A DNA stretch of 64,000 nucleotides from an uncultured Chloroflexia bacterium (GCA_963726375.1 CAVSCE010000009.1:546492-610491), one strand, 5' to 3'; shown: positions 5,623 to 53,038, numbered from the stretch's first letter. Translations and numbers: made by a program. The notes: generated from the sequence alone by a model not told the origin.

Positions 5623-7000
5623 GTGAATAAGAAAGTGATCCTGAGAAGTTATTTTATGGTTGCCTCGACCTTTATTCTGTCAACTGCGTCTTGCTCGCCT
5701 TCTCTCACTTCAAAAACCACAGGTCCAATTACTGCTTCTCCACAGAAGCAAGAAATTCCTGCTAGTGACTTCACAACTCCCTACAGTAACCATTGATGTG
5801 CCTGAAATACCTTCTCAAAGCCCAACTGCTTCTCCGCCAACCGAAGAAGCGATAGGACCTATTATCTCCCCGGCAGTGGAAGTTCTCCCAACATCGATCC
5901 CGAAATTCGGTCCAACGCTTGCATTCCTCAAAGATGGTGATATCTGGATGTTAGATCAGCCCGGCAGTGAACCCTATCCTTTGACATTTGCTGGAGATAT
6001 CATGGGATTTACCTGGTCCCCAAATGGAGAACGCCTTGCTGCATTTAATGGGAAGAATATTTGCTTTTTTTACCGTGATGGAAGCATCAGGTCAGCCTGC
6101 CTGGATTTGGGGTTAAATGTTGAACAATCCATTATCCCACGCCAGCTGATCATGTCTCCAGATCAACATTGGATTGTCTTATGGAACCCTACGACTCCTC
6201 AAGATAAAGGAACAATCGGCTGGATGATTGTTGCATTGGACACAACGAATATTATGTACCGCATTGAAGATCCTGTTGATTGGGGAGCCACTTTAACTCC
6301 AGAAAATGAGCCTGGAGGTTTTACAGGACACCCGCTCTTTCTTGAGGATGGGCGTTTGGTCGGGACGATATCGCATCAATCACTTTGCAGTGAATATGAC
6401 TGTCAGTATCATCTCAATTTATTTTAATTTTGAGACCCGCAAGTTCGAGGTTTTTCCTACATCTTTAGACGATAAGTTCAGCCAGGGTATCAGCCTTTCG
6501 CTTGATGATAAGAATAGTAAAATTACAAATTTTAGGACGCAATACTCAAGCTGCGAGGATTTTTCGACCATGCTTGATCTTCTCGACCTGAATACTTCAG
6601 ATCACTTGAACTGGAGTTTCGAAGGGGAGGCTTTCACAGATGTCGCTTTTCAATCCTTCGATGGATCAGGCAATTTTCGCTCGAAAATCAGGATGCACCG
6701 AAACAGAAGACGAATTCCTGGTCCGAAACATGCGGGTTAACCCAAAACAGTGAGATTTTATCAATGCAGTTCTGGAATCCAGATACAAACCAGCGCGATG
6801 AGTTTATTCCCGGGATTTCACCGAAATGGTCTCCGGATGGGAATTGGTTTGCATTCCGCTCATGCCTTTCTGAATTGTCCTCCGGGAAATGGAGCCAAAA
6901 CCCTGAGGTAGAACCAAAAATCTATATCTTCAACCCCCAAAAAGAGACAATGATTACAGTTATGGATGGCTTGACACCGCAGTGGCAGCCTTACCAATAA
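5623..7000 (+). CDS. PD40/TolB-like beta-propeller lipoprotein, multiple frameshifts
   Basis: A GGAAGGAG ribosome-binding site precedes a GTG at 5623, and the signal/lipobox-like sequence is FILSTASC. Fragments 5578..5796, 5660..6427, 6306..6740 and 6764..7000 follow each other in different frames. PD40-like motifs include FTWSPNGERLAAF and KWSPDGNWFAFRS. Confidence 0.45.
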
Positions 7001-7053: not shown

Positions 7054-7180
7054 TTATCGATTATTGATCACAATTGCGCCAATAACACCAGGTACCCAAC
7101 CGACTAGCGTAAGGATTGTCACTATCAGAAGTGACCCACATCCTTTATCCAAAACCGCTAAGGGGGGAAAGAAAATGCAT
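7054..7180 (-). CDS. Pmp3/YqaE (UPF0057) family small membrane protein, broken in a G6/C6 homopolymer
   Basis: It is not in the ORF track. The minus strand reads ATG CAT TTT CTT TCC CCC C.. and then, in a shifted frame, LAVLDKGCGSLLIVTILTLVGWVPGVIGAIVINNR*. This matches the family pattern (..PPLAV..G....LLTLLGWiPGviHA). The shift sits in the C6 run at 7152-7157. Confidence 0.55.
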
Positions 7181-7344
7181 AACAAGACTTCTCCAGATGC
7201 TCATTCTTTATCCTTTCAATTATCCGATTTGAAAATTTCTTCTAGATTATTCTTACGCAAAACTAGCCAAAAAGTTTCAAGAATTGGCAAAGCCTTACTC
7301 ATTCATCCCATGAGGGCTGGTGTTGCCTGTATAATTGCACAAAT

Positions 7345-8878
7345 ATGCAAAGAAAAAAGATTCGAGAAGTATGGATCGCCCGGATTTCCTTATGCACAGC
7401 GTGTCTGGTTTGTGCTTCGTTGTTAAGCTGTAATATTTTGGCAAGCGCTCCACAATTTCTAGTTTCCCATTCTCCATCTCCTCAATTTTCGAGTTCTCCT
7501 TTGCAAACTTCAATTGAAACTCACGTTCAATTGTCTTCAACCCCACTTTTGTCCACGAATATACCGACCCAAACCAGAATAGATACTCAAACACCCAATC
7601 CGACACAAATTTTTACAACAGAACCGCTTAACTCGCCAATCGGATCAGCGACAATTGTGCCGCCTTCCCTTACACCGGGTCCTGATCAGCTCACCAATGG
7701 AATGGATGTATGGAATTCTGGTCTCGATCGATTTTCCGAGTTATATAACCGCTTTGGGACGTGTCTATTCCCCGCCAACCAGACGAGATCCTTTTCCAGC
7801 ATATGTCTTCATTCGCTTAAATTTTGAATGCACCACAGGCAAATCTCTGATTGATCTGTATTCTGGATTGGTGATGGGGTTGAATTTTGTTCATAAACAA
7901 TCAGGCTACCCGGATCTAAGTATTGAGGATCTGCAGGGGCATAAATATCTTGTTACTTTGTTGGGTGCGTGTTGGCTTGCAGCACCTATACCTCGGACTC
8001 GTGCAAAGGATGCTTATTACAACTTAAATTTTAAGGACCTCCCCCCTTTGACATTCTCTTCAGAGGCAAATCTAATGGAGAGCGAAGGAGATATTTGCTT
8101 CATTTCGGATATGTATGGAACTGAAGAGGTATACAGCGCAAACCCGAATGGAGAAAATATTCTCCGATTGACAACAAATTTCAGCCGTGCTGCAGAACCA
8201 TCATGGTCTAATGATCATCAGAAAATTGCCTATGTCAACTTTAAAAAAGGCAACGGAGATATTTCAATTATCAACCGGACAGGCGTTGGGTTAGTAGAAT
8301 TGGAAATCTCTTCAGCAGATGAAGGGGCACCTGTTTGGGCTCCTTCAGACCAACAAATTGCATTTCATACTTTTCGAGACGGAAACTGGGAGGTCTATTC
8401 CAGCTCTCCTTCCGGGACTGATCTTCTAAATCTATCCAGAAGCTCTTTTGACGATATGTACCCTTCCTGGTCCCCGGATGGAAAACGTCTTGCTTTTCAA
8501 ACACTCAGAGACGGAGATTGGGAAATCTATCTGATGAATTCTGATGGAACTCAATCGGAACGATTGACCAATAATGAAACAGACGAAATTCTCCCAGCCT
8601 GGTCTCCTGATGGATACCAAATTCTTTTTTGGACTTTTCAATCCGGAACTTGGAAGTTAATGTCCATAAATCCAGATGGGCAGAATTTATCAACACTAAC
8701 CACATATGAAAATCCTGGCTCAAATCCAAGCCGCGCAGCGTGGTCTCCAGATGGGGGAAAAATCCTTCTTTCTCTGCTTCGGGACGGATTCTTGCAACTC
8801 TATACGATGAATGCAGACGGCACTGAAGTCACCCGGCTTACCAGATCTCCTGCCAATTTTTTTGATCCTGACTGGTAG
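7345..8878 (+). CDS. TolB-like PD40 beta-propeller lipoprotein, frameshifted near 7700-7820
   Basis: The signal peptide with lipobox is CASLLSC (ORF 7345..7827). Five or more PD40 repeats lie in ORF 7655..8878: SWSNDHQKIAYV, VWAPSDQQIAF, SWSPDGKRLAFQT, AWSPDGYQILF and AWSPDGGKILLS. Confidence 0.75.
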
Positions 8879-8895: not shown

Positions 8896-10414
8896 ATGGA
8901 GTCGAAAACAAGCATGAATGTTGGTTGGCATGACCATCCGCAAGATAATATCGTCATCTTTATCCCAGGATATATGGGCAGTCGACTTCGCAACCGTGTC
9001 ACTGGTGAGATTGTTTGGATCGATATCCAAAAGATTTTGAAAGATCCATTAGAAATCCATTCCAATTTAATTCATCTTTTCAAGCAAATGCAATTCCCGA
9101 ACGACGACCTGGTTCCAGACGGGATTGTCGAAGAAATCCTGTTCATCCCGCCATTTCTAAAGCAAAAACAATACGGACCACTTATTGATACACTGAAATC
9201 TTGGGGCTTTTCTGCTTCCATGGGGAATAAAGATGGAAAATCATCCAGGCTGTACACATTTGCCTACGACTGGCGGCAGGATAATCGAGAATCAGCAAGA
9301 AAGCTTTCTGCATTGGTACGATTTTTGAACAAGCGGCATCCCAATTCATTAATTTGGATTATTGCGCACAGCAATGGGGGCACCGTGGCACGTTGGTATA
9401 TCGAAAAGGAAGGTGGGAAAGAATTTATCGATCGGCTGTTCTTAATTGCATGTCCATGGGATGGAGCCCCAAAATCCATCCAAACTTTACTTCAGGGACC
9501 AGAAATCTTCTTTTTACGTCTATTCAATCAATTTGGCATTCAGCACTATTTCCAGGAGACTGCTCTCACATTCCCGTCCTTTTACCAACTTATTCCTGGA
9601 TTTCTCCCCTTCCTCAAGCAGGAAAATGGGAGTAAATTCGATCCATTTTTCGATCAGCGCTGGCTATCAAATTCCAGGCAGCGTGATATGCTCGAAAATG
9701 CCAGGAACTTCTACAATGAATTAGGGATGGATTTGAGTGTGGAAACACTTTGCTTTTTTGGTATCAATCAACCAACTGTCAGCGAAGGGATTGTATCGCA
9801 ATCTGCTTCAGGAAAAATTAACAGACATTCGCTGGATAATGGATGAGGAAGGGGATGGGACTATACCTGTCCATAGTGCGGTTCACCCAAATGCGTCCCA
9901 AAAACTCCCATATTCTGCTGACCATGGGGATATCTGCAATTACACACCTATGTTGGAAAAATTGAAGTTTGAATTAATTCAGCGGTACACCATCGGGGAG
10001 CTTGCTGCAGTTCCAGCTTCTCGAATAAAGGTAAGTTTTGATTCTGATCGAGACGTGTACCTTCCAGGTGAAGTTATTCCCATTTCCATCAAGGCATCTT
10101 CAATCGATACCGGACTGCCTATTTATGATCTACAGGTGGAAGTGAACATTCACCAGATTGTAGGTTTAGAGAATTATAAATGGGTCGAATTTACAGAAAA
10201 ATCAGGAACAATTTCCGAACCGTTTTTTTTGGCAGAAGCTTGTAAATCTCCAGGTCGATATGAAGCGAAAGTTACAGCACCAGCCAAGGATGGATATTAT
10301 GAGATGACAGCAAAAATCAAAACAAAAGAATTCGGTGTAGTAATTTGTCGTAAATTAATCCTGATTGAAGGAGATAAGATCGAATTTTCCAAAGGACAGA
10401 TCCCGGAAAATTAA
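8896..10414 (+). CDS. LCAT-like alpha/beta hydrolase (lipase/acyltransferase), frameshifted near 9800
   Basis: FIPGYMGSRL, YDWRQD and the nucleophile elbow AHSNGG are the lecithin:cholesterol acyltransferase family pattern. EEGDGTIPVHSA follows after the shift (ORF 9737..10414). Confidence 0.65.
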
Positions 10415-11409
10415 TGATATTTTTCCTCCAGCTCTGTTCTTTCAAAATCTGAAAGAAATGCTGCCTTGAGCCCATTTTCTTGGATTTGTCGAACCTGGAT
10501 CTGGGATAAACCCGCTGCTGGGGCAGCAACTTCGTATTCATGGATCAAGTCAATACCGCTGATACCCGGATCATCCGTATTTATAGTCGCCAATAATCCT
10601 TGCTCCATGAAGCTCCGGATAGGGTGGCTAAAGTAATCAGGAACCGTGCTGGTCTGGAGATTGCTGGTCAGGTTGCATTCGATTGCGATATGATGTTCCC
10701 TAAGATATTCGATCAGCATAGAATCTTTGAGAGCAGTAACACCATGCCCGATCCGTTCAGCCTTCAATTCCAATACTGCCTGCCAGATGCTCTCCGGACC
10801 CGAACTTTCTCCAGCATGTGCGATGACATGCCAACCGGATTTGCGCGCCTCAAAAAAATGCTCTTTAAACAATACAGCCGGGTAATTCGCCTCATCCCCT
10901 GCCAGATCGAGCGCCGTAATTCTTTCACCCTGGCTGAGTAGTGCACGCAGCTCTTGCCAGCCAGATTTTGGACCATAAGTGCGGCTGATGATTCCAATCA
11001 GTTTTGATTTAAGATCAAACTCTTTTACTCCGGCATCCACCCCATCACATACTGCCTCAACGACCCGCCGAGGGTCGAGCTGATGTGCACCTGACATAAA
11101 GAACGGGGAAAAGCGCAATTCAACATAATCCAAACCTTCAATTTTCGCATCTTGAATATTTTCATAGGCAACCCGCCAACAGGAATCATAATCGACCAGA
11201 ATTTGAATCATCCATTGAAACTTGCCTATGAATTCCATCACTCCCGGCTGAGGATCAGTCACCTGTACATATGGTCTCAAACCTTCGACGTCCCAGGCAG
11301 GGAGATTTAAATTGTGCTTCCGGCTCAGATCGATGATCGTCTCAAGTCGGACACTTCCATCCAGATGGCGGTGGAGATCTACTAAAGGGAAATTGGGATC
11401 ATGGTACAT
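10411..11409 (-). CDS. add: adenosine deaminase
   Basis: Metal-ligand and signature motifs are present: DLHRHLDGS, HAGE and NTDDP. I set the start at the ATG at 11409 (MYHDPNFPLVDLHRH). The track ORF begins at an upstream TTG at 11436. Confidence 0.9.
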   Translation of the reverse strand: MYHDPNFPLVDLHRHLDGSVRLETIIDLSRKHNLNLPAWDVEGLRPYVQVTDPQPGVMEFIGKFQWMIQILVDYDSCWRVAYENIQDAKIEGLDYVELRFSPFFMSGAHQLDPRRVVEAVCDGVDAGVKEFDLKSKLIGIISRTYGPKSGWQELRALLSQGERITALDLAGDEANYPAVLFKEHFFEARKSGWHVIAHAGESSGPESIWQAVLELKAERIGHGVTALKDSMLIEYLREHHIAIECNLTSNLQTSTVPDYFSHPIRSFMEQGLLATINTDDPGISGIDLIHEYEVAAPAAGLSQIQVRQIQENGLKAAFLSDFERTELEEKYH

Positions 11410-11622
11410 AATTTGAATACTGCCTTTCAAATTCAATAAAATGATACTCTACCTCAGCAGCCACCGCAAGTATCTTTGTTGAAATCTGCTCATTATTCGG
11501 GTAGAGATCGACTATAATAGCCAAGTTAATCTAGTTTCGATCGACATTTACGATCAGCAATCGAAAATGCGGGTTGATTTCCAATAAATTCATTAAGGAA
11601 TACTCAAGAAGAGCGAGGGAGC

Positions 11623-12372
11623 ATGATAGAAGGTGAAAATATCGAACCAACAGAAATTAGCGAACCGGAAAGCGGACAAAAAAGTCGGATCCTGATTATT
11701 GGCATTGCGATGCTTCTGGTCGGTTTAATCCTCGGCTATTTAGGCCGTGGCGCATTTGGACCAGAAGCAATTTCAGCTCGGAAGACAGAAACTGCAGCTG
11801 CCGCTGCTGTCCAAACCCAGGTTTCTTCAAATCAGGAAATGATGAAGTCGATTGTGGCCGAAACCATTCATTTCAAGGGAGATCCTGCCGCACCCATAAC
11901 TATGATTGAGTTTAGCGACTTTCAATGACCTTATTGCGGCCGATGGGCAACTGACGCGGGTCGTCAGATTGAAGAAAATTTTGTCAATAAGGGTGATGTA
12001 CGGTTAGGCTATTTTCATTTTGCTTTTCTTGGAGACGAGTCGATAGTCGCTGCTGAAGCGAGCGAATGCGCTGGAGACCAGGATAAATTTTGGGAATATC
12101 ACGACTATTTATTCTCGCATCAAAACGGAGAAAACCAGGGTGCGTTCAGCGAGGAAAATCTGAAAAAATTTGCTCAAGAGATGGGACTCGACCAAAAAGC
12201 TTTCAACTCATGCCTGGATTCCGGCAAATATACTGAAGCTGTCAATCGACAGAATGAGTTTGCTAGAAAATTAGGGGTTCAAAGCACGCCAAGTTTTCTG
12301 ATTAATGGAATTCCATTGGTTGGTGCGCAGCCGATTGAAAAATTTCAAGCATTATTCGAACAATTGAAGTAG
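11623..12372 (+). CDS. DsbA-family thiol:disulfide oxidoreductase with in-frame TGA at the first Cys of CXXC (candidate selenoprotein UPYC, or a nonsense allele)
   Basis: ORFs 11623..11928 and 12181..12372 are in the same frame, and the whole interval is open except for TGA 11926-11928. The context is ITMIEFSDFQ-TGA-PYCGRW, which matches the DsbA/Thioredoxin_4 signature EFsDFQCPYC. An N-terminal TM anchor is present. Confidence 0.7.
11948..11971 (+). promoter_or_regulatory. SECIS-like hairpin downstream of the in-frame TGA
   Basis: The hairpin is CAACUGACG-CGGGU-CGUCAG(A)UUG. It has a 6 bp GC-rich upper stem, 3 further bp below a bulged A, and a 5 nt apical loop containing GGG. The apical loop starts 28 nt after the UGA. 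Confidence 0.45.
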
Positions 12373-12422
12373 AAAATCCAGCTATTCCTTAGGATTCCAA
12401 AGGCAACAGCTTGATTTTCCCG

Positions 12423-12452
12423 AAAAAAGGCGATAAATACATCGCCTTTTTT
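12423..12452 (+). terminator. Rho-independent terminator after the DsbA-like gene
   Basis: AAAAAAGGCGAT-aaatac-ATCGCCTTTTTT forms a perfect stem flanked by an A-run and a T-run. Confidence 0.75.
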
Positions 12453-12570
12453 CTAATCTTGTGGTTTCTCTTTCATGCAATTCAACTTATAGAATTTTTA
12501 AATTCCCAGTCTTATAACCTTGACCGCATCCTTATCTTATGGAAAAATACTTTTTAGGGTTTGTAAATCA

Positions 12571-13140
12571 ATGAGTTCAACCAGCGGCATATATATAAAT
12601 TTAATTGTTTTTGATGGGGATGATACCCTCTGGTTTGGCCTTGATGGAGGTTATATTTCTGGGATCAATTATTCTGATTATGGGAGCGACACGTACACTT
12701 TTCGAAGAATTGGGGAGGATTTTATCGAACGCAATGATGGACAGAGATTTCGTCTGTATCCAGAAGTCCGAAGTTTGCTCGCAAATCTCATGAATATGAA
12801 ACTGCTGATCTCTTTGGCAAGCTACAATCATCCTTCACCAGTTGAGAAAGCATTACACGCATTCGAAATTAATCAATTCTTTCTTCACCCCGTCATCGAA
12901 TACAGCAGTCAAAAAGATAAAATGCTCAAAGCGATACTCCGCAAGTTTTCCCAGTCAGGTTGGCTAGTTAAACCTTCAACAACCCTCTTTATTGATGACG
13001 ATCACCAGAACCGCTATTTGAAACAAATGGAGTTTATTGGTGTACATTTTCTAAAGAAATCTTCAGATATTACAAATCTCAACGAGCTGATAAATAATCC
13101 TAAGTTTCAGCTAGTTCCTGCACAGAAAAGTCTGATTTGA
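12571..13140 (+). CDS. HAD-superfamily phosphatase (MDP-1-like)
   Basis: Motif I is VFDGDDTLW (DxDxT) and motif IV-like is LFIDDD. I set the start at the ATG at 12571. Confidence 0.6.
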
Positions 13141-13175
13141 ATATATTTCAGAAAACTATTACGAGGACTTGCTTA

Positions 13176-13595
13176 ATGAAATCGTATCGTAAAGAGATCT
13201 GGTTAAATATTCCTGCGAGGCGCAGCTTTATCAACATCACTTCGAAAATTGAGGAGTGTTTGCGAGAGAGTGGGATTATCGAAGGTATTGCATTGGTAAA
13301 TGCCATGCATATCACCGCTTCTGTTTTCATTAATGATGACGAAAGCGGTTTGCACAGGGATTATGATGACTGGCTTGAACAACTGGCACCCCATGATCCT
13401 ATCTCAAAATATCGACACAACAGGACTGGAGAAGACAACGCTGACGCCCACCTGAAACGCCAGATTATGGGACGAGAGGTTGTAGTAGCCATCTCAAATG
13501 GCCTCCTTGATTTTGGTCCCTGGGAACAAATTTTTTATGGAGAATTTGACGGACGTCGACCGAAACGGGTGCTTGTTAAAATCATAGGTGAATAA
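13176..13595 (+). CDS. YjbQ/UPF0047 family protein (secondary thiamine-phosphate synthase-like)
   Basis: [23 protein letters not shown]...[42 protein letters not shown] is characteristic of YjbQ. Confidence 0.8.
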
Positions 13596-13720
13596 TCGAT
13601 CAAGCCTGCCTTAATTGCCAGATTTAATAGGCTGGTCTTCTCCTTTGGGAAGTCAACTTCTCCATGCAATTGGAAATGATGTATGATTAGATTCTGTTAA
13701 TTCTTTTCAAGGAGACAAAA

Positions 13721-14075
13721 ATGAAAGCGATAGCCTACATCGCCGCAGCGATTCTGATCTTCTTTGGTGTGCTTTTTGTCTGGGGCGCTTTCAGTTCCGA
13801 AGGGTCCCCTGGTTGGATTCTGGTTGGTTTGATCAGCATTTCAGCAGGCTTTGTGATCATCTGGTTTTTCAGCCGTGCCAAAAAAAGCGAATCGGGATCG
13901 AATATCACCTATCAGGTAGATCTTCCGGCAAATATCAGTCTTGACACTCTTAAATGCAAGTCATGCGGTGGAGCATTTGACCGCTGATAACATTTCGATG
14001 GTGGCTGGTGCACCGGTTGTAAAATGTCCTTACTGTGGAACGAGTTATCAGCTCACCGAGGAACCGAAGTGGTGA
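13721..14075 (+). CDS. small 2-TM membrane protein with C-terminal zinc ribbon (frameshift in a TTT run at about 13975)
   Basis: An AAGGAG ribosome-binding site precedes the start, and two TM helices follow. The ribbon reads CKSCGG...(shift)...LTADNISMVAGAPVVKCPYCGTSYQLTEEPKW*, a CxxC-N19-CxxC arrangement. Confidence 0.6.
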
Positions 14076-14103
14076 CTTTCCTCTTGGAGAAAAGGATGCT
14101 TTC

Positions 14104-15786
14104 ATGAGAAAAATTTATATCTCATTTATTCTTATCTGCTTGATGTTGATTTTCCATGGGACTGGATCGGCACAATCCTATCTTTTTCAGTTGGAACAAC
14201 TGGAAGTCAACATTTATGTGAATGATGATGGATCTGCTTCCATTGATTATCGATTTACATTTGTTAATGATCTTTCAGCACCAAGGATCGAATATGTTGA
14301 TGTTGGGATGCCAAACAGTCAGTTTACACTTCAGGGTGCAACCGCCGAAGTGAACGGACAGACTGTCGCAGTATCTCAATCTGATTATGAGGGTGACGGA
14401 TCGGGTTTTGCCGTAGTGCTGGGTGGAGCTGGTATACCCCCAGGGCAGCGGGGGGAAGTTCATGTGAATATTCCAGATGCCGGAAGTTGGCTCCGGTATG
14501 ACAGCGAGGATGATGGTTACGCAAGCATTGCCTTTACACCTACCTGGTTCGGCTCAGAGTATATCAAGGGCACAACAGAAATAACGGTTTCGATTCATCT
14601 TCCTCCTGGGATCCAACCGGAGGAACCTCGCTGGCACAAAGCTCCATCTGGATGGCCCGAACAACCAGAAGTAAGCCTGGATGAGGAAGGCAGGGTAGTT
14701 TACACATGGACGAATTCGGCAGCATCAGCTTCGAAAAAATATATATTTGGCGCTTCCTTCCCAACTCAATATGTACCTCCAACAGCAGTAAGTAAGCCCT
14801 CCTGGTTTGAAATCCTTGGCATCAGCGAAGATACATGTTTCACATTTCTTTGCTGCGGAGGGATTTTTGCTTCGGTTATCGGTGTGGGATGGTGGAATAA
14901 TGAGGCATCCAGAAAACGAAAATTAAAATATCTTCCACCAAAAATCACGATCGAAGGTCTCGGGATCAAACGCGGACTTACAGCTGTCGAAGCAGCCATA
15001 CTCATGGAACAACCACTCGATAAAGTGATGACCATGATCCTTTTCGGAGTCCTGAAGAAAGCAGCTGCGACAGTCCGCACAAAAGATCCGCTTGAATTAG
15101 ATGTCGTAGAAATACTTCCTGATGGGTTAAATCCATATGAAGTTGATTTTCTCAAGGCTTTTAGATTACAGGAAAAAACCGAACGCCGAAAAGCTCTGCA
15201 AACAGTCACCATAGATATCGTTCAAGCCGTTTCCGCAAAGATGAAGGGGTTCAGTCGAAAGGAGACAATCGCATATTACCAGGATATTATGGAAAAAGCC
15301 TGGAAGCAAGTTGAAACGGCTCAAACACCGGAAGTGAAGAGCGAAATGTTTGATAAAAACCTGGAGTGGACCATGTTGGATAAAGAATATGACGACCGCA
15401 CCAGGGATGTTTTCCAATCAGGTCCTGTTTACCTACCTAACTGGTGGGGCCGATTTGATCCAACATACAACAGACCAATCAGTACCTCCCGACCTATTTC
15501 ATCCCCTACCCAGGTGGGGCAACCTTCCGGAGGCGGCGTTTCGCTACCAACACTTCCCGGCGGCAGCTTTGCTGCATCGATGGTCAATGGAGTGGAAAAT
15601 TTCTCTGCTGGCGTCATAGGAAATGTAAATGATTTCACCAGAACTATCACAAACAAAACAAATCCAATCCCGGTTCCAAGCGTAACAAGAAGCGGCGGCA
15701 GCAGCAGCGGAAGGAGCGGTGGGGGATGTGCCTGCGCCTGTGCCTGTGCTGGCTGTGCGTGCGCTTGCGCCGGTGGAGGTCGATAG
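14104..15786 (+). CDS. DUF2207-like membrane protein with a C-terminal Gly/Ser spacer and (Cys-Ala)n tail
   Basis: The signal peptide is MRKIYISFILICLMLIFHGTGSA. It is followed by an extracytoplasmic beta-rich domain, one TM helix (FTFLCCGGIFASVIGVGWW), and a cytoplasmic region (GLTAVEAAILMEQPLDKVMTMILFGVLKK). The protein ends in SGGSSSGRSGGGCACACACAGCACACAGGGR*. Confidence 0.65.
   Translation: MRKIYISFILICLMLIFHGTGSAQSYLFQLEQLEVNIYVNDDGSASIDYRFTFVNDLSAPRIEYVDVGMPNSQFTLQGATAEVNGQTVAVSQSDYEGDGSGFAVVLGGAGIPPGQRGEVHVNIPDAGSWLRYDSEDDGYASIAFTPTWFGSEYIKGTTEITVSIHLPPGIQPEEPRWHKAPSGWPEQPEVSLDEEGRVVYTWTNSAASASKKYIFGASFPTQYVPPTAVSKPSWFEILGISEDTCFTFLCCGGIFASVIGVGWWNNEASRKRKLKYLPPKITIEGLGIKRGLTAVEAAILMEQPLDKVMTMILFGVLKKAAATVRTKDPLELDVVEILPDGLNPYEVDFLKAFRLQEKTERRKALQTVTIDIVQAVSAKMKGFSRKETIAYYQDIMEKAWKQVETAQTPEVKSEMFDKNLEWTMLDKEYDDRTRDVFQSGPVYLPNWWGRFDPTYNRPISTSRPISSPTQVGQPSGGGVSLPTLPGGSFAASMVNGVENFSAGVIGNVNDFTRTITNKTNPIPVPSVTRSGGSSSGRSGGGCACACACAGCACACAGGGR
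15727..15771 (+). repeat. coding (Cys-Ala)4-Gly-(Cys-Ala)3 tract
   Basis: The codons are TGT GCC TGC GCC TGT GCC TGT GCT GGC TGT GCG TGC GCT TGC GCC. Synonymous codons are mixed, so the repeat holds at the peptide level and is not a clean DNA microsatellite. Confidence 0.9.
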
Positions 15787-15835
15787 ATTTGAATGAAGAT
15801 TTCGTGATGATTTTTATTCTTTGAGGTCGTATTTG

Positions 15836-17187
15836 ATGGATTTCCGGAAATATTTCGCAAGATCAAGACGGACTTAACCTGCGAACTCGCATGGTATTCA
15901 GCTTTCATCCTTTATTCGCGATAATGGTTCTGAAAAGGCACATATTCACCTGCGAATAGATACAGACGGAAGTGGTCTCTTGATCATCAACGCAAACAGC
16001 GTAATTCACTTGAATCTGATCAGCAGCATCGATGGCACTCCTGGCGTTACAAGACACTCCTAAAGCCCAAGCAGTTCATGAACTTAAGAGGAAATTCTCA
16101 ACATCGACTCACAAGATATCTGGTGACTATACGCAGTTTGTTTCGCAATTAAACGAACTGATTGATCCAAATGGCGCCTGTCCCATTCATGCTCTAAATC
16201 TTGAAACCATTCCTCCTTTCACAACAAAGCCTTCGGCTCCCTATCGAATGGACATAGCCTTGACCTACCGCTGTAACAATGATTGCTTTCATTGTTATAA
16301 CGCCCGACCTCGTGATTTTTCAGAAATTTCAACGGATGCTTGGAAGAAAATCATCGATAGGATTTGGGAAATTGGCATCCCCCATTTGGTTTTCACGGGT
16401 GGAGAACCGACGCTCCGGCCAGACTTACCGGAACTGATTGCCTATGCGCAGCACGTCGGACTGATCACTGGATTAAATACCAATGGTCGTTCGTTAAGCA
16501 AGCCTAATTATCTGGAAACACTGGTCAGCTCTGGATTAGACCACGTACAAATCACAATAGAATTCTCACGACCCTCAGATCCACGACCAGATGGTTCGAG
16601 CTAAGGGTGCCTGGTCACAAACTGTTGCTGGAATTCGCAATGCGTTGGACACCCCACTTTACGTAATGACCAACTCTACGATGTTGCGCCAGAATTCACC
16701 ATCAATGAACAAGACACTTCATTTTCTTGCCGAACTCGGAGTGCCGACGATCGGCCTGAATGCCTTGATCTTTTCCGGTTCAGGTGCTACATGCGGAAGC
16801 GGGCTTCATGAGGCAGAATTGCGGCCGATTCTCGAGCTTGCTCGAAACCTGACCGAGCTTCATCATCAACGGCTGATCTGGTACACACCTACCCAATATT
16901 GCAATTTTGACCCGATGGATCTGGATCTTGGTGTCAAAGGATGTACTGCCGCCCGCTACAATATGTGTATCGAACCGGATGGAGCAGTCATCCCATGCCA
17001 ATCATATTATTTTCCCCTGGGTTCGATGCTCAACGATCCATGGGACAGCATCTGGGAACATGATCTGGCAAACCAGCTGCGGAATCGCCAGGAACGGCAG
17101 GAAAAATGTAATTCCTGTCAATTATTTTCAGAATGTGGTGGTGGGTGCCCGTTATCTTCGACGCATAATCCAAATAATAAAGAATAG
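15836..17187 (+). CDS. radical SAM/SPASM peptide-maturase-like enzyme with a PqqD/RRE-like N-terminal domain; disrupted by an in-frame TAA at 15875 and two frameshifts
   Basis: The radical SAM motif is CNNDCFHC (CxxxCxxC), and GGEPTL is present. The SPASM signature is exact: CIEPDGAVIPC (G-x4-C) followed by CNSCQLFSECGGGC (Cx2Cx5Cx3C). The N-terminus HLRIDTDGSGLLIINANSVIHLNL...DYTQFVSQLNELID follows the PqqD pattern. The fragments are 15836..15877, the frame up to about 16025, 16032..16604 and 16591..17187. Confidence 0.8.
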
Positions 17188-17199
17188 TCAGAGGAAAAA

Positions 17200-18345
17200 A
17201 TGCCAGGTATGCTCCGTCCAATTCAGCGTTTTTTTTCCAACAACAAACCAATTCCTGCCGGTCTTTATCACTACAAAGCACCGCAGCACGATCCGCGTAA
17301 CTACCAATTGCATTTACGTATCGAAGAAAACGGTGATGGGCTGCTGATCATTAACGCTTCGACGGTTCTTCATCTAAATTTGACCGCTGCAGAATATGCG
17401 TATTATCTCATCTGCAGCAAATCCGAAGAAGAGATCGCTCGTCTAATGGTTACTCGCTATCAGGTCGATCATGATCAAGCGCTGCAGGATTACAGGAATT
17501 TCTCAGATCGAATCCACACGATCATCGAGACACCCGATTTGGACCCGGTCACTTTTCTTGACGTCGACCGCCTTCAACCCTTTTCTGGTAGATTGACTGC
17601 ACCGTATCGTCTGGATTGTGCATTAACCTATCGACTTCCCGAGGATGAAAATCCCGAATTAGAACTGATCGAACGCGTGTCAAGGGAACTGACAACTGAA
17701 GACTGGAAAACCATTATGCAGAAAGCGTGGGATGCAGGCATTCCGCACATACTATTCACTGGCGGAGAGCCAACGCTTCGTGATGATTTACCTGAGCTGA
17801 TCCGCTTTGCAGAGCGAACCGGTCAGGTTACTGGATTATTAAGTTATGGATCAAAGCTCGTTGATTCCAGCTATTTTTCTGAACTCCTTCAATCTGGATT
17901 AGATCATCTGATGCTGATCTTAAGATCTGATAACGAGTCGTCATGGAAATCCGTTCAGAGTTCGATTGCTGAAGATCTATCCCTGACAGTACACCTGACA
18001 ATTGATCACGAAAATAAGGGAGATTCCGAGGCGATCTTACGCCGACTTGCCAAAATAGGAATAGTGAACGTCTCTCTGAGTGCAGTTGATGATTCGCTCG
18101 CCGAATACCTTCAATCTGCGAGGTCATGGGTTGCTGCTCTTGGCCTTGAGCTGATCTGGAACCTTCCAGCTCCTTATTCATCCCTACACCCGATTGCACT
18201 AGAAAATAAAGATGCAGGTATCGAAGGTGCGGGGCGAGCATGGATTTACGTTGAGCCAGATGGTGATGTCCGTCCATCACAAGGCAATCCGAAAATCTTG
18301 GGGAATATCCTGACCGATCCCTGGAATAAAATATGGAAAGGTTGA
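17200..18345 (+). CDS. Cys-less paralog of the preceding radical SAM/SPASM enzyme (degenerate radical SAM fold with a PqqD/RRE-like N-terminus)
   Basis: It aligns by eye with the upstream gene along its whole length: HLRIEENGDGLLIINASTVLHLNL, APYRLDCALTYR, IPHILFTGGEPTLRDDLPELI and YVEPDGDVRPSQG. CxxxCxxC is replaced by LPEDENPE, the SPASM cysteines are absent, and the C-terminus is truncated. A GAGGA ribosome-binding site precedes the ATG. Confidence 0.75.
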   Translation: MPGMLRPIQRFFSNNKPIPAGLYHYKAPQHDPRNYQLHLRIEENGDGLLIINASTVLHLNLTAAEYAYYLICSKSEEEIARLMVTRYQVDHDQALQDYRNFSDRIHTIIETPDLDPVTFLDVDRLQPFSGRLTAPYRLDCALTYRLPEDENPELELIERVSRELTTEDWKTIMQKAWDAGIPHILFTGGEPTLRDDLPELIRFAERTGQVTGLLSYGSKLVDSSYFSELLQSGLDHLMLILRSDNESSWKSVQSSIAEDLSLTVHLTIDHENKGDSEAILRRLAKIGIVNVSLSAVDDSLAEYLQSARSWVAALGLELIWNLPAPYSSLHPIALENKDAGIEGAGRAWIYVEPDGDVRPSQGNPKILGNILTDPWNKIWKG

Positions 18346-20893: not shown

Positions 20894-21903
20894 CTAATCA
20901 TTTGAATGCGGTTCGATTATGACTTTTAATCCATCGCGCTTTGCGGCTATTTCAAATGCCTTTTCAACCATATTCAAAGGAAACCTGTGGGTGACCAATG
21001 TTCGAACATCAATCAGCCCATCTTCTACCAACCGAATCGCACGAGGATAAGTATTATTCATTCTGCGACACAAAATGATCTGAAGTCCCTTTCTGCGTGC
21101 AGTCGAGGCGCAAAATGCTATTTGATCTTTGGCTGGTATCCCCACAATAACAACAGTCCCTCCTGGTCTGGCAGCAGCAACTGCACTCTCAACTGCCTCC
21201 GGCTCACCAGCCGTCTCAAAAACAATATCTAATCCTCGATTCCCAATTTGTTGATTTAGCTGATTAGGATGTCCATCTTGATCAACAAGCAGCTGAAGAT
21301 CTGACCCAAGCGATTGGGCTTTCTTCAGTCGATGTTCTAAACGGTCAGAAGCCGCTATCATTCTGGGACGTCTCAATTTCAGAAGCTGTATCAACAACAG
21401 GCCGATGGGTCCACATCCAAAAACTCCCAGCTGCATTCTTGGATGCATTTGTACCAGGTCATGGGCATAGATCGCCACTCCAAGCGGCTCGAGCATCGCG
21501 CCATCTATTGCATTAAAATCCTTCGGCAGCCGAAATATTTTATTAACCGGCCAGCAAATATATTCCCTTAGCGCACCATCCATTTGACCATGACCCGCAA
21601 ATTTTACTTCCGGACACAGGTTGTGATTTCCTTCACGACAGGATTCGCATTTTCCACACGGAACAGCTGGATCTAATGCAACAAGCTGCCCGCTTGTGGT
21701 GTCAAAAGCTGAACATTCATGACCTAATACAAGTGGTTTTGTTAAGACAGAATCCCCGATTGCCGTGTCAATCATCCAGTGGATGTCCGATCCGCAGATG
21801 CCAACAGCTTCAACTCTTAAAGAGCTTCTCCTTTACCAGGAGATGGGCGCTCCTCTTCATGGATTCTAAAATCATTCCTGCCGTGCAAACGCACTGATTT
21901 CAT
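20894..21903 (-). CDS. zinc-dependent alcohol/polyol dehydrogenase (sorbitol/threonine dehydrogenase-like), frameshifted near 21800
   Basis: The N-terminus MKSVRLHGRNDFRIHEEERPSPGKGEAL...VEAVGICGSDIHW is in a shifted frame. ORF 20894..21775 carries GHE and the CGKCESC structural zinc site. The ATG overlaps the upstream stop (ATGA at 21900-21903). Confidence 0.8.
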
Positions 21904-25174: not shown

Positions 25175-25570
25175 TCAGTCAACTAAATCGTCGCTGGCTT
25201 CTCCCAAACCATAAACCCCAGCCTTCAAGACTTTCAGCGACAACAATGCGCATTTCAGACGAACTGGACCCAACTCCAGGCCTAATAATTCCAGTAGATC
25301 TTCTTTTGAAAATTGTTTTACTTCTTCGACCGATTTATTTATGACAGAATCTAACAATAGATCCGCAGATGCCTGCGAAATCGCACATCCATGTCCTTCA
25401 AAGACAGCCTCGTTGATCCGATTACTCGAGTCTACTCGCAGTTCGATTCGAATGTGATCCCCACAAAGCGGATTATCGTCTTCGAAGGCAATGTCGTGCG
25501 GGACAAGGTTTCCGCGATGTTGAGGATTTTTATAACGATCAATTATTATTTCTCGATAAAGGTCATCCAT
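25175..25570 (-). CDS. sufU: SUF system Fe-S scaffold SufU (NifU/IscU-like)
   Basis: The sequence reads YREIIIDRYKNPQHRGNL, NPLCGD and GHGCAIS. I set the start at the ATG at 25570, just after the sufS stop. Confidence 0.88.
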   Translation of the reverse strand: MDDLYREIIIDRYKNPQHRGNLVPHDIAFEDDNPLCGDHIRIELRVDSSNRINEAVFEGHGCAISQASADLLLDSVINKSVEEVKQFSKEDLLELLGLELGPVRLKCALLSLKVLKAGVYGLGEASDDLVD

Positions 25571-25583
25571 AGAAATTACTTTC

Positions 25584-26834
25584 TTATAATCTAAAGAATT
25601 CACGAACCTTGTACAGTGATTCGGCTAGATGATCGACTTCTTCTTTTGTGGAATAAAGATAAAAACTAGCCCTGGCAGTTGCGGGTAATCCATATTTCTC
25701 ATGAAGGGGCATCGCACAGTGGTGTCCTGCGCGAATTGCGATCCCAGATCGATCTAATATTTGAGAGATATCATGAGGATGAATCCCAGAAAGCGTAAAA
25801 GAGACTACACCGCCGCGGTACTCGGCTTTTGGACCAATGACTTGAACGCCTGGGATTTCTTCAAGCCGTTCCATCGCATAAGCCACAATCCATTTTTCAT
25901 GGTCAGCAATCGCTTGCATGCCAATCGTATTCAAGTAATCAATTGCAGCATTGAAACCAATTCCTTCAGCAATTGCTGGCGTTCCAGCTTCGAATTTATG
26001 AGGCAGCTCGTTTGGTGCGAATGACCTCAAATGGACGCGTTTGATCATATCTCCACCACCTAAGAATGGTGGCATCGCGTCCAGCATCTCTCTCTTCCCG
26101 AATAATACTCCTATCCCGGTCGGTCCGCACATCTTATGAGCGGAGAAAGCTATAAAATCTGCATCCAGTTCTTTGACGTCGACCGGTAAATGCGGTACTG
26201 ATTGTGCTGCATCGACTAGCGCTACAGCTCCAGCCTGATGAGCCAGGTGAATAATCTCCCTGGCTGGATTAATCGTCCCGAGGACATTGGACATATGGGT
26301 AAATGCTACAAGTTTTGGTTTAAGCTCAAGTAATTTGGCATATTGGTCGATATCCAGCAGACCATCTTCGCCGACAGGGATGAATTCCAAACGAAGATCT
26401 ATCTCCGTTGCAAGGATATGCCATGGTACTAAATTGGAATGGTGTTCCATTTCAGTGAGTATGACGACATCGCCTGTCTTGAGAAATTTTCTCCCCCACG
26501 AATAAGCCACAAGATTTATTGATTCTGTTGTATTCCTGGTAAAGATCACCTCCCTCGATGAGGCGGCATTGATAAAACTCGCAACTTTTTTTCTTGCCAA
26601 CTCGTAACCTGCAGTCGATTCCTCAGCAAGCACATGAATCCCCCGATGGATATTTGCATTGGACTCTCTGTAAAAATGATCCATGGAATCGATCACAATC
26701 TGGGGTTTTTGGCTCGTAGCTGTTGAGTCCAGATAGACCAGTTTAATTCCGGGGTGGACATCACGATTTAAGATTGGAAAATCCGAGCGAATACGATTTA
26801 TATCAAAGAATTGTTCTGGTTTGTGATCCATCAT
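25584..26834 (-). CDS. sufS: cysteine desulfurase SufS
   Basis: It is a 416 aa class V aminotransferase. It carries the SAHKMCGPTGIG PLP lysine and the RAGHHCA active-site cysteine loop. Confidence 0.92.
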   Translation of the reverse strand: MMDHKPEQFFDINRIRSDFPILNRDVHPGIKLVYLDSTATSQKPQIVIDSMDHFYRESNANIHRGIHVLAEESTAGYELARKKVASFINAASSREVIFTRNTTESINLVAYSWGRKFLKTGDVVILTEMEHHSNLVPWHILATEIDLRLEFIPVGEDGLLDIDQYAKLLELKPKLVAFTHMSNVLGTINPAREIIHLAHQAGAVALVDAAQSVPHLPVDVKELDADFIAFSAHKMCGPTGIGVLFGKREMLDAMPPFLGGGDMIKRVHLRSFAPNELPHKFEAGTPAIAEGIGFNAAIDYLNTIGMQAIADHEKWIVAYAMERLEEIPGVQVIGPKAEYRGGVVSFTLSGIHPHDISQILDRSGIAIRAGHHCAMPLHEKYGLPATARASFYLYSTKEEVDHLAESLYKVREFFRL

Positions 26835-26877
26835 GATTGTTTATTTCGCCGAATTAACTTTTATATGAAATCCAACA

Positions 26878-27222
26878 TTATTCTTCGTCTTCCGTCTCGG
26901 AAGAAGCAGGTGGTTGAACTACACGACCACCTGTTGGTCGTTTCCGTCTGCGGCGAAGCGGTTTTCGGAGATTATTTGAACCTTTAGGACACCAAAGCAC
27001 ATGATCTGGGACCATCCAACCGTCGGTCAAGTAGACATTATCTTGAAACTGGACAGCAATCAATTTCATATCCACCTGGACGATAGTCCCGACAAGCCAA
27101 TCCCGAATTCGCTCGCCTTGTCTGTCGTGATCGCAAAAGACCTCGATCAAATCACCCACTCGAAAATTTTCATCTCGATCGGGAGCTGTGGAAAAATATA
27201 GACTAGACAAATTATCCTCCAA
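26878..27222 (-). CDS. hypothetical protein with an Arg/Lys-rich then acidic tail, embedded in the suf operon
   Basis: It is a 114 aa ORF between sufD and sufS on the same strand. I recognise no motif. The tail is KPLRRRRKRPTGG...ETEDEE. Confidence 0.4.
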   Translation of the reverse strand: MEDNLSSLYFSTAPDRDENFRVGDLIEVFCDHDRQGERIRDWLVGTIVQVDMKLIAVQFQDNVYLTDGWMVPDHVLWCPKGSNNLRKPLRRRRKRPTGGRVVQPPASSETEDEE

Positions 27223-27254
27223 AATGATTCCGAAAAGTATTCATCATAATATAA

Positions 27255-28615
27255 TTATCCCATTTTCTCTTCGATGGCGTTTTGAAATCGAGAGCGCACT
27301 CCTTCGAATGGGATGCGCTGCATGATGGGATCAAAAAATCCTTCCACGATCAAGCGTTCTGCGTCACTATACGAGATGCCCCGACTGCGAGCGTAGAATA
27401 TCTGATCCTGATCAATTTTTCCAACCGTAGCCCCGTGCGTGCAGCGCACATCATCAGCCAGAATCTCCAATCCAGGAATGGAATCCGCACGGGCTTCTCG
27501 GCTCAGCACAAGATTTCGATTTGCCTGATATCCATCTGTCTTCTGGGCGCCAGGTGCAACGTAAATCATCCCCTGCCAGACCGATCGACTTTTATCTCGG
27601 AGCGCACCTTTAAAAAGCAGGTCACTCGTTGTATTTTTCGCCAGATGGTTTTGTTGGGTATCGTGATCAAAATGCTGGCTACCGCTCGAAAAATAAAATC
27701 CTGACATCCGACCAGTAGCTCCCTGGCCTATAAGCTCGATTTCGGAAAAGTTCTTTGTGAGGTGGCTCCCAATGGCTCCAAAAATCCAATCCAAATTCCC
27801 GTCTTTCTCCACCCTAACCCTCTCATGGCTGAAATTCCAGACATGTTCACCCCAAGATTGGAGCTCTACAAAACGTAAATTAGCCCGCTCTCCAACATGA
27901 ATTTCTAAAACCCCGGCGTGCATTGTATGCCCATTCGGCTCGGTTTGAGATGCTGTCTCATGAACATAAGTCAAGGAAGAATCATCGTCTAACCAGACAA
28001 GGATATGGCTCAAGTATGCCAGATTTATCCCAGGACCCCAAAGCATGCTGTGCAAAGGCAACTCGAGGTGGAGGTTTTTCGGAACATAAATCAGTAAGCC
28101 CAGATCGGCATATGCACTCGCCAAAGCAGCGAACTTACCTTCAGATGGCTGGACTATTTTTCCAGAATTTTTTCTAGAATCTGTGGATGTTCGCTTTGTG
28201 CTGTCTTAATATCTGTAAAGATAACCCCTTTTTGGGCCAAAATTGGATCCAAATCAATCCTTGTTTGATTAGCCGTTAGGATAATCTGACCACCATGCTT
28301 GTTTCCTGTTAAGGGTTCAAGTAACGCTTTTGGAGGTTCGGAGAGCTGCGCTTTGCTCCGATCAAGCTCAATTGGTAGAATAAATTTTTCTACAGGTAAT
28401 CCTCGCAGGTCTGTCCTGCGCCAGGGTTCGTCGTTCACTGTGGGCATTCGGAGCTCATTGTACGTAGAAAACGCATTGTTGCGGAAATCTCTAATAAAAT
28501 CAGGAGTTCCAGTACTATAAGCAGTGCCTGGCGGCAGCCTGTCAACAAACGCAAATTCCTTGCGTTCTGCACTTCCTCTTTGACCAGATCTTGATATGAC
28601 GACTCGTTCTTTCAT
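27255..28615 (-). CDS. sufD: Fe-S cluster assembly protein SufD, frameshifted near 28130
   Basis: Fragments 28154..28615 and 27255..28124 are contiguous. The C-terminus has the typical SufB/D pattern: SREARADSIPGLEILADDVRCTHGATVGKIDQDQIFYARSRGI. Confidence 0.88.
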
Positions 28616-28628
28616 CTTTCCTAGGCCT

Positions 28629-30034
28629 CTATCCGACCGATCCTTCCATTTGGAGCTGAATCAACCGGTTCATTTCAATAGCATACTCCATCGGGAGTTC
28701 TTTCACGAGAGGTTCGATAAATCCGGACACAACCATGGTGGTTGCTTCTTCCTCACTCAACCCCGACTCATCAAATAAAATAGCTGCTCTTCACCAACCT
28801 TGGAGACCGAAGCTTCATGTCCAACAGAAACATCCTCTTCATCAATTTCAATGTATGGGTAGGTATCTGATCGAGCTTTCTCATCTAAAAGCAGTGCATC
28901 GCAAACTACATTCGACTTGACATCGAATGCACCTTGATGAACCTTCAATAAACCTCTGTAAGAAGCCCTACCACTCCCTTTGCTAATTGATTTTGAAGTG
29001 ATCTTGCTGCTGGTATGCGGCGCAAAATGGATTGCTTTACCCCCGGCATCTTGATGCTGTCCGGGTCCTGCAAACGCCATCGACAATATTTCGCCATGTG
29101 CTTTCGGACCCAGCAAATACGTGGAGGGTATTTCATCGTCAATTTGGATCCCAGATTTGCATCTACCCATTCCATGGTCGCGCCTTCATAAACCAAAGCA
29201 CGCTGGGTGACAAGATTATACACATTCGTTGACCAGTTCTGAATTGTTGTATATCGGACACGCGCATGAGGTCTTCACAATGATTTCAATCACACCAGAA
29301 TGAAGAGAATCGGTCGTATATGTTGGTGCCGTGCATCCTTCAACATAGTGAACCTGCGATCCCTCATCAGCGATGATCAGTGTGCGCTCGAATTGACCAA
29401 TATTCGCGATATTCAGACGAAAATATGCCTGTAGTGGAAGGTCAACCTTGATTCCCTTCGGAATATAGATAAATGAGCCACCGGACCACACGGCTCTGTT
29501 CAAGGCGGCAAATTTATTATCCTCTATTGGAATTACAGTGCCAAAATATTGCCTGAAGAGGTCTGGATGCTTGCGAAGTCCGTCTTCGATGCTTAAGAAT
29601 ATCACACCTAATTTTTCAAGGTGATCTTGCACCTTGTGGTAGACCATTTCGGACTCGTATTGAGCTCCGACTCCGGCCAGGAATTTTCGTTCTGCTTCAG
29701 GAATACCCAACTTATCGAAAGTATTCTTGATCGTTTCTGGTACATCATCCCACGATTGGCTTTCAGAATCTGATGGTTTCACATAATAATAAATATCATC
29801 CAGATTCAGGTTACTGAGATCCCCTCCCCAGACTGGTATCGGACGTTTTTGGAAATGATCAAGAGCTTTTAATCGAAAATCGAGCATCCATTCGGGTTCA
29901 CCCTTCATTGAAGAAATCTGCTCGACGATTTTTCGATCCAACCCCTTGCGGCTCTTGAAGACATAGGTGTCGGGGTCATTAAAACCATACTTATAATCAC
30001 CAATATCCTCTAAAATCCGGGAATCGCTTGACAT
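28629..30034 (-). CDS. sufB: Fe-S cluster assembly protein SufB, at least three frameshifts
   Basis: SufB sequence is spread over several frames: YKYGFNDPD.., [26 protein letters not shown].., [77 protein letters not shown] and [24 protein letters not shown]. Confidence 0.9.
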
Positions 30035-30100
30035 TCTTACCTCCACACAAACCCCATCCCTAGATAACAACGGGTGATTATCAGGATGGGGGCGATAAGT

Positions 30101-36766: not shown

Positions 36767-36850
36767 TCAAGACACGATTGCGGCTAAAATCATTTTTGTT
36801 TATTAAACCTTGGAATATTTTAGAAAATTTCATTGAGGTATAATCCGGTC

Positions 36851-52966: not shown

Positions 52967-53038
52967 TGACCCCGACAGGGCTCGAACCTGTAACCAATTG
53001 ATTAAAAGTCAACTGCTCTACCATTGAGCTACGGGGCC
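52967..53038 (-). tRNA. tRNA-Lys (anticodon UUU)
   Basis: The reverse complement is GGCCCCGTAGCTCAATGGTAGAGCAGTTGACTTTTAATCAATTGGTTACAGGTTCGAGCCCTGTCGGGGTCA. It has a 7 bp acceptor stem, a D-loop AGCTCAATGGTAGAGC, an anticodon loop CT-TTT-AA and a T-arm GGTTCGAGCC. CCA is not encoded. Confidence 0.93.

Follow-up and report, generated by a model that had tools for sequence, protein, structure and literature searches.

Does a stop codon at the active site of a redox gene mark damage, or does it encode selenocysteine (Sec)? The question is raised by a gene for a DsbA-like oxidoreductase on a stretch of 64,000 nucleotides from an uncultured Chloroflexia bacterium (GCA_963726375.1, CAVSCE010000009.1:546492-610491), which we refer to throughout as the window and whose first letter is position 1. 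An earlier note on this DNA had proposed the gene as a candidate selenoprotein, since a TGA codon replaces the first Cys of its CPYC motif and a hairpin lies just downstream. We compared the gene, the TGA and the hairpin with their counterparts in public sequence collections. With a probability of about 0.9, we read positions 11623-12372 as one intact gene encoding a membrane-anchored oxidoreductase of the DsbA/BdbD/MdbA type, with selenocysteine as the predicted nucleophile of a U-P-Y-C motif. We favor this reading because the TGA column is shared with other loci, the frame downstream of the TGA is under purifying selection, the hairpin is conserved with covariation, and the same hairpin is absent from orthologs with Cys at this position.

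An in-frame TGA at the active site of a DsbA-like gene

On the plus strand, positions 11623-12372 form a frame of 250 codons, and translation bears out the earlier description of a single TGA, at 11926-11928, as its sole internal stop. Read through this codon, the complete coding sequence would encode a DsbA-like selenoprotein of 249 residues with Sec at position 102, ending at a TAG at 12370-12372. The 147 codons that follow the TGA are unbroken, both in the window and in its closest relative, a contig that we call L220. With U read as C, the product matches the Pfam families Thioredoxin_4 (115.6 bits, E=3.5e-33) and DSBA (63.6 bits, E=2.6e-17), both above cut-off, identifying a DsbA-type thioredoxin-fold domain. 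The redox motif U102-P-Y-C105 (11926-11937), assigned by translation and by alignment with homologs, corresponds to the UxxC motif given for DsbA-like selenoproteins (PMC1088965, PMC13188914).

In a database search, the window protein matched more than 6,500 homologs, and the best matches are 53-66% identical to it; the named proteins among these best matches come from Anaerolineales or Anaerolineae metagenome-assembled genomes (MAGs). We aligned 16 full-length homologs (alignment A1) and found that the TGA falls on the first Cys of an invariant E-F-x-D-F-Q-C-P-[YF]-C motif, exactly the nucleophilic Cys of the thioredoxin-fold motif at which it had been placed from the sequence alone. All full-length database homologs have Cys at this column. 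We also scanned two public collections, one of metagenomes and one of genomes, with the degenerate DNA pattern GARTTYNNNGAYTTYMARTGACCNTWYTGY, which encodes E-F-x-D-F-[QK]-TGA-P-[YF]-C. At least 120 loci matched in the metagenome collection and at least 120 in the genome collection, counts that are lower bounds on a biased sample, as the EFxDF context was required. By our own arithmetic, the pattern is expected by chance at 2^-43 per position under uniform base composition, or about 0.14 matches on both strands of the 596-Gb genome collection.

The 240 loci listed hold 243 sites, with a median open frame past the TGA of 150 codons, and their translations continue as the remainder of the DsbA-like domain. 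The matches listed from the genome collection lie in MAGs labelled Anaerolineae/Anaerolineales, Dehalococcoidia, “Chloroflexia”, Acidobacteriota, Myxococcota, Desulfobacterota and Planctomycetota, among others. The same codon is thus present in at least 240 loci besides the window and L220, nearly all of them with about 150 open codons past it, and TGA at this column is a widespread and inherited feature of the DsbA-like family. The column thus pairs Sec-type genes with Cys homologs, as the earlier note had anticipated for a true selenoprotein.

Several of the loci carry more than one such gene: two or three Sec-type DsbA-like genes stand in tandem, with a TGA in each, on L042 (5056-5085 and 5730-5759) and L199 (three sites). 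Two other Sec-type contigs are labelled as “uncultured Klebsiella sp.” (L141, CAZIKU010000083.1) and “uncultured Enterobacteriaceae bacterium” (L200, CAZBUD010000003.1). Around the active site, the gene on L141 is near-identical to its counterpart in a Chloroflexota MAG (L164), and the taxonomic labels of these two co-assembly bins are probably wrong. We also scanned the window for further in-frame TGAs that have Cys, Ser or Thr close by; each of the 85 motif matches lies in a non-coding frame or at an ordinary gene end. The window holds no second selenoprotein candidate.

The TGA and the frame beyond it are conserved in a related species

L220 (contig CAWBGK010000002.1) belongs to MAG MFD04716.bin.2.192, which serves in the collection as the representative of its own species. 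The contig is syntenic with window positions 10109-18094 and aligns over the whole 8 kb at 92.4% nucleotide identity. The ortholog on L220 shares 95% protein identity with the window protein, the same architecture and the identical TGA; apart from substitutions, the only difference between the two genes is an in-frame indel of 18 nt in the N-terminal tail. Using the Nei-Gojobori method, we determined the ratio of non-synonymous to synonymous changes per site (pN/pS) to be 0.07 upstream of the TGA and 0.18 downstream of it, where 10 differences are synonymous and 7 are non-synonymous (P=0.0006 against neutrality). Purifying selection therefore acts on the sequence beyond the TGA, and this sequence is translated. 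Reproduction of the TGA in an independent assembly of a related species supports the selenoprotein reading.

The comparison with L220 also bears on a simpler explanation, in which the gene would be an ordinary Cys-type DsbA gene whose TGC or TGT had been turned into TGA by a sequencing or assembly error. Many window genes are broken by single-base indels, as is typical of uncorrected long-read assemblies. Apparent single-base frameshifts split genes into overlapping same-strand open reading frames (ORFs) at 5660-6740, 7064-8878, 8896-10414, 16032-17187, 28154-30070, 32371-34195, 36427-37273, 39367-40630 and 47851-50351; the genes affected include two for radical SAM/SPASM proteins and those for SufB, RecJ, an LCAT-like protein, a PD40-repeat protein, a reprolysin-like peptidase and YkuD. 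Three further genes seem to be truncated at the N-terminus (ADH, 20894-21775; NTP_transferase, 46129-46926; PGM, 44778-45998). Where L220 overlaps the window, the gene-breaking indels are private to one assembly or the other: the radical SAM/SPASM gene near 16564 is split in the window and whole in L220, whereas a gene for a 583-residue protein, near 15235, is split in L220 and whole in the window. Because they are private in this way, the frameshifts point to long-read assembly errors rather than real pseudogenes.

The errors observed are thus indels, and the stop in the DsbA-like gene is of the substitution type, a distinction that the earlier note had drawn and that the comparison upholds. 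The TGA is common to the window and to L220, an independent MAG, and is therefore not an assembly error. Moreover, the site is accompanied by a clade-specific hairpin that is wanting in syntenic Cys orthologs, as described below. We consider the probability that the TGA is a base-calling artifact to be practically negligible.

A covarying hairpin follows the TGA

Starting 19 nt (11929-11947) past the TGA, the RNA can form a hairpin of CAACUGACG, the loop CGGGU and CGUCAG(A)UUG, at 11948-11971. The conserved core of this candidate bacterial Sec insertion sequence (bSECIS) spans 11951-11967 and comprises a 6-bp stem, CUGACG/CGUCAG (11951-11956 with 11962-11967), and the CGGGU apical loop. The extended hairpin (11948-11971; -8.7 kcal/mol) adds three lower pairs across a bulged A at 11968; these lower pairs are only partly conserved. 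Published constraints on bSECIS elements (PMC13188914) give a loop of 3-9 nt, an upper stem of 4-16 bp, a G in the first two loop positions, a UGA-to-loop distance of 16-37 nt and an energy of at most -7.5 kcal/mol. The window element falls within every one of these, with a 5-nt loop, a 6-bp stem, a G at loop position 2 followed by another G, a distance of 28 nt (the earlier note, too, had placed the hairpin in the distance range used for bacterial SECIS prediction), and the energy given above.

We compared the 60 nt starting at the TGA across 74 distinct Sec-type sequences of the Chloroflexota clade, from which the window and L220 were excluded; the alignment is gapless. RNAalifold predicts exactly one helix for these 74 relatives, in which columns 26-31 pair with columns 37-42 around a 5-nt loop, corresponding to 11951-11967 in the window. 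Three of the six stem pairs are invariant, and the other three show compensatory changes: pair 29-39 is GC in 40 sequences, AU in 24, G·U in 8 and broken in 2; pair 26-42 is CG in 68 and UA in 5; and pair 27-41 is UA in 68, CG in 3, and AU and G·U in 1 each. The observed covariation was reached in none of 500 column shuffles, and shifting the 3′ partner by 1-3 columns lowers pairing from 92% to 17-60%. The covariation between columns 29 and 39 (Fisher p=1.4e-10) couples position 2 of an Asp/Gly codon to position 3 of an Arg codon; since the latter is synonymous, protein constraints do not explain it. Some of the compensations change an amino acid, for example from Gln (CAG) to Leu (CUG) or Arg (CGG), together with ACU to ACA or ACC.

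The apical loop is conserved as well, with G33 invariant and G34 and G35 predominant in the 74 relatives. Below the core, 71 of the 74 keep pair 25-44, which spans the near-invariant bulged A; pair 24-45 is formed in 6 and pair 23-46 in 47. The only substitution in the hairpin between the window and L220, an A to G change at column 25, retains G·U pairing. A covariance model (R1) built from the 74 sequences, again with the window and L220 left out, identifies positions 11926-11985 with 64.5 bits (E=1e-14) and nothing else of significance in the 64 kb. The same model scores L220 at 63.2 bits and Cys orthologs at 9-29 bits. An Infernal model made entirely from other genomes thus recovers the site that had been proposed from this sequence alone. 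Of the checks suggested in the earlier note, all those we ran favored its interpretation.

The predicted element shows no sequence resemblance to the SECIS of E. coli fdhF. Sec forms of a Dehalococcoidia type (L020, L028, L139, L151, L152 and L231) carry another hairpin, CGCCCU-CGGGCC-AGGGCG, which lies about 5 nt nearer the TGA and encodes A-L-G-P-G-R. To judge by sequence, it fits a second SECIS type in one protein family, with a conserved function on a divergent sequence.

An open frame beyond a TGA would also be explained if UGA were decoded in some other way, either through a reassigned code (as Trp or Gly) or through near-cognate read-through inserting Cys or Trp. Nothing specific speaks for this. 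TGA terminates 14 of the 43 Pfam-supported ORFs in the window as an ordinary stop, so the genetic code is standard. Moreover, the TGA in question is confined to the redox Cys column and stands beside an element that conforms to bSECIS rules, which is the signature of Sec and not of a code change. Decoding as an amino acid other than Sec is thus very improbable.

Sec and Cys forms alternate at a conserved locus

The best full-length Cys homologs of the window protein (P0003, P0002 and P0006) are positional orthologs, encoded on contigs with the gene order of the window. This common order comprises genes for an LCAT-like protein, an adenosine deaminase (minus strand), the DsbA-like protein, an MDP-1/Acid_PPase phosphatase and usually YjbQ, followed by a small protein of about 120 residues, a protein of about 560 residues and a radical SAM/SPASM protein. 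A phosphatase gene likewise lies downstream on a short Sec-type contig (L023). In the three syntenic Cys orthologs, only 1-2 of the 6 stem pairs are possible at the equivalent columns. The hairpin is thus kept, with covariation, in the orthologs that carry TGA and is absent from these Cys orthologs; the earlier note had named lack of conservation in TGA-bearing orthologs as a refutation of its reading.

One Cys form, P0015 (L245, 1501-2319), is near-identical to a Sec form (L056) and has kept 5 of the 6 stem pairs and the CGGGU loop. From its sequence, this hairpin appears to be a fossil SECIS that has outlasted a recent change from Sec to Cys, a phenomenon that has been described (PMC1794560). 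In a rough neighbor-joining tree, which is approximate, Sec and Cys forms are interleaved throughout the clade, and the window protein and its L220 ortholog are together sister to the syntenic Cys group. If this interleaving reflects many independent switches, the clade would offer an unusually dense natural experiment on when Sec pays in an exported disulfide oxidoreductase.

These observations suggest a broader model, to which we give even odds. In this model, a single Anaerolineae-like locus (adenosine deaminase, DsbA-like protein and MDP-1/HAD phosphatase) would carry Sec or Cys according to genus. The Sec forms would share one SECIS type, ACUGRCG-CGGGN-CGYCAG, which imposes the peptide T-[D/G]-A-G-R-Q-I and degenerates once Sec has given way to Cys. 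There would have been many independent switches, if the tree holds, and the proteins would constitute a distinct, uncurated subfamily beside the NCBIfam family NF041057, which is discussed below.

Proposed mechanism and evidence against it

In the mechanism that we propose, the UGA at 11926-11928 would be recoded as Sec during translation. The hairpin 28 nt downstream (11951-11956 with 11962-11967, loop CGGGU) would act as a bacterial SECIS, recruiting SelB·GTP·Sec-tRNA(Sec) to the ribosome and allowing read-through to the TAG at 12370. As the SECIS would lie inside the coding sequence, it would also constrain the encoded peptide, T-[D/G]-A-G-R-Q-I. We infer SelB-dependent decoding in the source organism, an oxidase role for the protein, and any catalytic advantage of Sec within it. 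Sec has a lower pKa than Cys and exchanges faster. Most likely, the Sec102 selenolate or a Sec102-Cys105 selenenylsulfide would exchange with substrate thiols or disulfides in the cell envelope, in the way that DsbA, BdbD and MdbA do with Cys. The protein may work as an oxidase, an isomerase or a reductase.

Five observations weigh against this reading. First, neither selA, selB, selD nor tRNA-Sec was found in the 64-kb window by ARAGORN, Rfam and Pfam searches covering about 60 ORFs (the only tRNA is a tRNA-Lys), a result that is uninformative for a piece of 64 kb. Second, the nearest relatives of the window protein besides L220 are Cys forms, so that Sec is not fixed in its lineage. Third, the assembly is error-rich, with many single-base frameshifts, and from the window alone the TGA could be a base-call error; the TGA in L220 argues to the contrary. 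Fourth, we found no Rfam match to the hairpin, either at gathering thresholds over the whole window or with permissive settings on 11880-12030, where there were chance matches to snoRNA and CRISPR direct-repeat families only.

Finally, the folding energy of the 60-nt stretch that begins with the TGA is -12.4 kcal/mol, compared with -13.4 ± 2.8 kcal/mol for shuffled sequences (z=+0.36), with 122 of 200 shuffles equal or better, and the minimum-free-energy fold of 11926-11985 is a structure other than the hairpin. Because the single-sequence fold is no better than that of shuffles, the significance of the hairpin derives wholly from comparison with relatives. The hairpin described in the earlier note accordingly stands in part: its position, its 17-nt upper stem-loop (11951-11967) and its bulged A at 11968 hold up, whereas beyond the 6-bp upper stem and the A25-U44 pair, its remaining two lower pairs are specific to the window.

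Some of these observations would also suit a pseudogene or relic, in which a Sec-type gene, or a mutated Cys-type gene, persists in a lineage without Sec-decoding machinery, and translation ends at codon 102. The lack of Sec machinery in the window agrees with such a relic; frequent Sec/Cys interconversion in the clade means that loss events do occur, and selenoprotein loss has been described as common (PMC1794560). However, the TGA, the SECIS and the 147-codon downstream frame have all been kept across two species that differ by about 8% in nucleotides, with the downstream pN/pS given above, and the lone hairpin substitution preserves pairing. Retention of both the structure and the frame is unexpected of a dead gene, and we consider a relic quite unlikely.

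Architecture of the predicted selenoprotein

Turning to the remainder of the product, we identified in the translation an N-terminal hydrophobic segment, ILIIGIAMLLVGLILGYLG, at residues 23-41 (19 residues; 11689-11745), which is conserved in homologs. The preceding residues 1-22 form an acidic tail in the window protein, where homologs are instead rich in Lys and Arg before the same segment. The translation has no Cys in residues 1-101 and hence no lipobox Cys, which means that this is not a lipoprotein. The sequence suggests that residues 23-41 serve as an uncleaved membrane anchor of N-in, C-out topology, which would place the catalytic domain, probably, outside the cytoplasm.

Two cysteines beyond the active site, Cys149 (12067-12069) and Cys197 (12211-12213), occupy invariant columns in alignment A1, and the DsbA structure 4PWP has no Cys at the position aligned with Cys149. 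Invariant in the clade, the two may form a structural disulfide. Thr222-Pro223 (12286-12291) fall where thioredoxin-fold oxidoreductases have their cis-proline loop, within an S-T-P (221-223) that is invariant in A1 and aligns with G-T-P of 4PWP; judging from the fold, the conformation may be cis. Beyond the stop codon of the full-length ORF, a terminator-like hairpin, GGCGAT-AAATAC-ATCGCC followed by TTTTTT, lies at 12429-12452 on the plus strand. It was recognized by direct reading, and a consensus terminator scan was silent. Nothing comparable lies between the TGA and the stop codon.

Comparison with known DsbA-like families

DsbA-like selenoproteins with a UxxC motif (PF01323/COG2761) are a documented family, as the earlier note had stated. 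They were first described from the Sargasso Sea (Zhang, Fomenko and Gladyshev, 2005; PMC1088965), were found in cultured Deltaproteobacteria and Clostridia (PMC1794560), numbered 41 organisms in a 2016 count (PMC5029168), and appear in a 2026 review under the name “DsbA-like protein form 1” (PMC13188914). The window protein shares with this family the thioredoxin-fold DsbA domain, Sec as the first residue of UxxC, and widespread Cys homologs, together with a bSECIS directly downstream of the UGA that has a G in its small apical loop. It differs in matching Thioredoxin_4 (PF13462) better than DSBA (PF01323), in its N-terminal membrane anchor, and in belonging to a Chloroflexota (Anaerolineae-like) clade.

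The best NCBIfam match of the window protein is NF041057, the “Rcas_1661 family thioredoxin-like (seleno)lipoprotein” of Chloroflexi (176.3 bits, E=7.6e-52, residues 54-247 of 249), a family of Sec and Cys proteins from the same phylum. The curated cut-off of this family is 190 bits, above the score of the window protein; seven relatives from the Chloroflexota, among them both Sec and Cys forms, reach 158-183 bits, and one Acidobacteriota Sec form scores 95.8. We rejected membership in NF041057 on the basis of the sub-cut-off score, the transmembrane anchor and the missing lipobox Cys. On these sequence grounds, we treat the window protein as belonging to a sister group of NF041057.

Among solved structures, those nearest in sequence are DsbA (4PWP/4PWO; E about 1e-23), a thioredoxin-domain protein (7UNN) and Bacillus subtilis BdbD (3EU3; E=1e-19), with E values from 9e-24 to 1e-19 for similarity spanning residues 86-246. 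We take these to be extracytoplasmic disulfide oxidases of Gram-positive bacteria. They share with the window protein the EFSDF-x-CP[FY]C active-site context and the G-T-P cis-Pro loop, but have Cys at the nucleophilic position and lack the Cys149/Cys197 pair. A shared function is suggested by this homology.

Significance for annotation

The finding is correct but ordinary, adding one further member to a selenoprotein family known since 2005. Standard gene callers would give a 101-residue fragment followed by a second fragment, or a pseudogene, even though the gene is intact and has Sec at its active site. In error-rich long-read MAGs, such a TGA could also be mistaken for damage, and the comparison with L220 shows how the two can be told apart. 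The covariance model R1 and the SECIS alignment of 74 sequences could serve for automatic flagging of selenoprotein genes in this clade. The locus adds one exported, membrane-anchored Sec oxidoreductase to the Chloroflexota, with export predicted from the anchor, and provides clean pairs of Sec and Cys orthologs in conserved synteny. It is in line with the dynamic Sec/Cys exchange already described in the literature and leaves that view unchanged.

Genomic neighborhood

A conserved gene cluster lies immediately downstream of the selenoprotein gene, at 13721-18345 in the window, 11481-16031 on L241 and 6926-10771 on L243. It encodes a small protein of about 120 residues, whose gene is broken in the window near 13978, and the 583-residue protein, which has no Pfam or NCBIfam match and a C-terminus ending in ...SGGGCACACACAGCACACAGGGR. 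Two radical SAM genes come next, at least the first of which encodes a SPASM domain. A Cys/Ala-repeat tail encoded beside SPASM enzymes suggests a substrate for peptide modification. No redox partner of the DsbB/VKOR type lies adjacent to the selenoprotein gene, either in the window or at the syntenic loci.

Elsewhere in the window, the minus strand at 25175-30070 carries a SUF iron-sulfur operon with NifU/SufU-like, SufS (Aminotran_5), SufD and SufB genes, the SufB part of which is fragmented. The minus strand also encodes the single tRNA, tRNA-Lys(UUU), at 52967-53038, and an H+-pyrophosphatase at 55184-57544.

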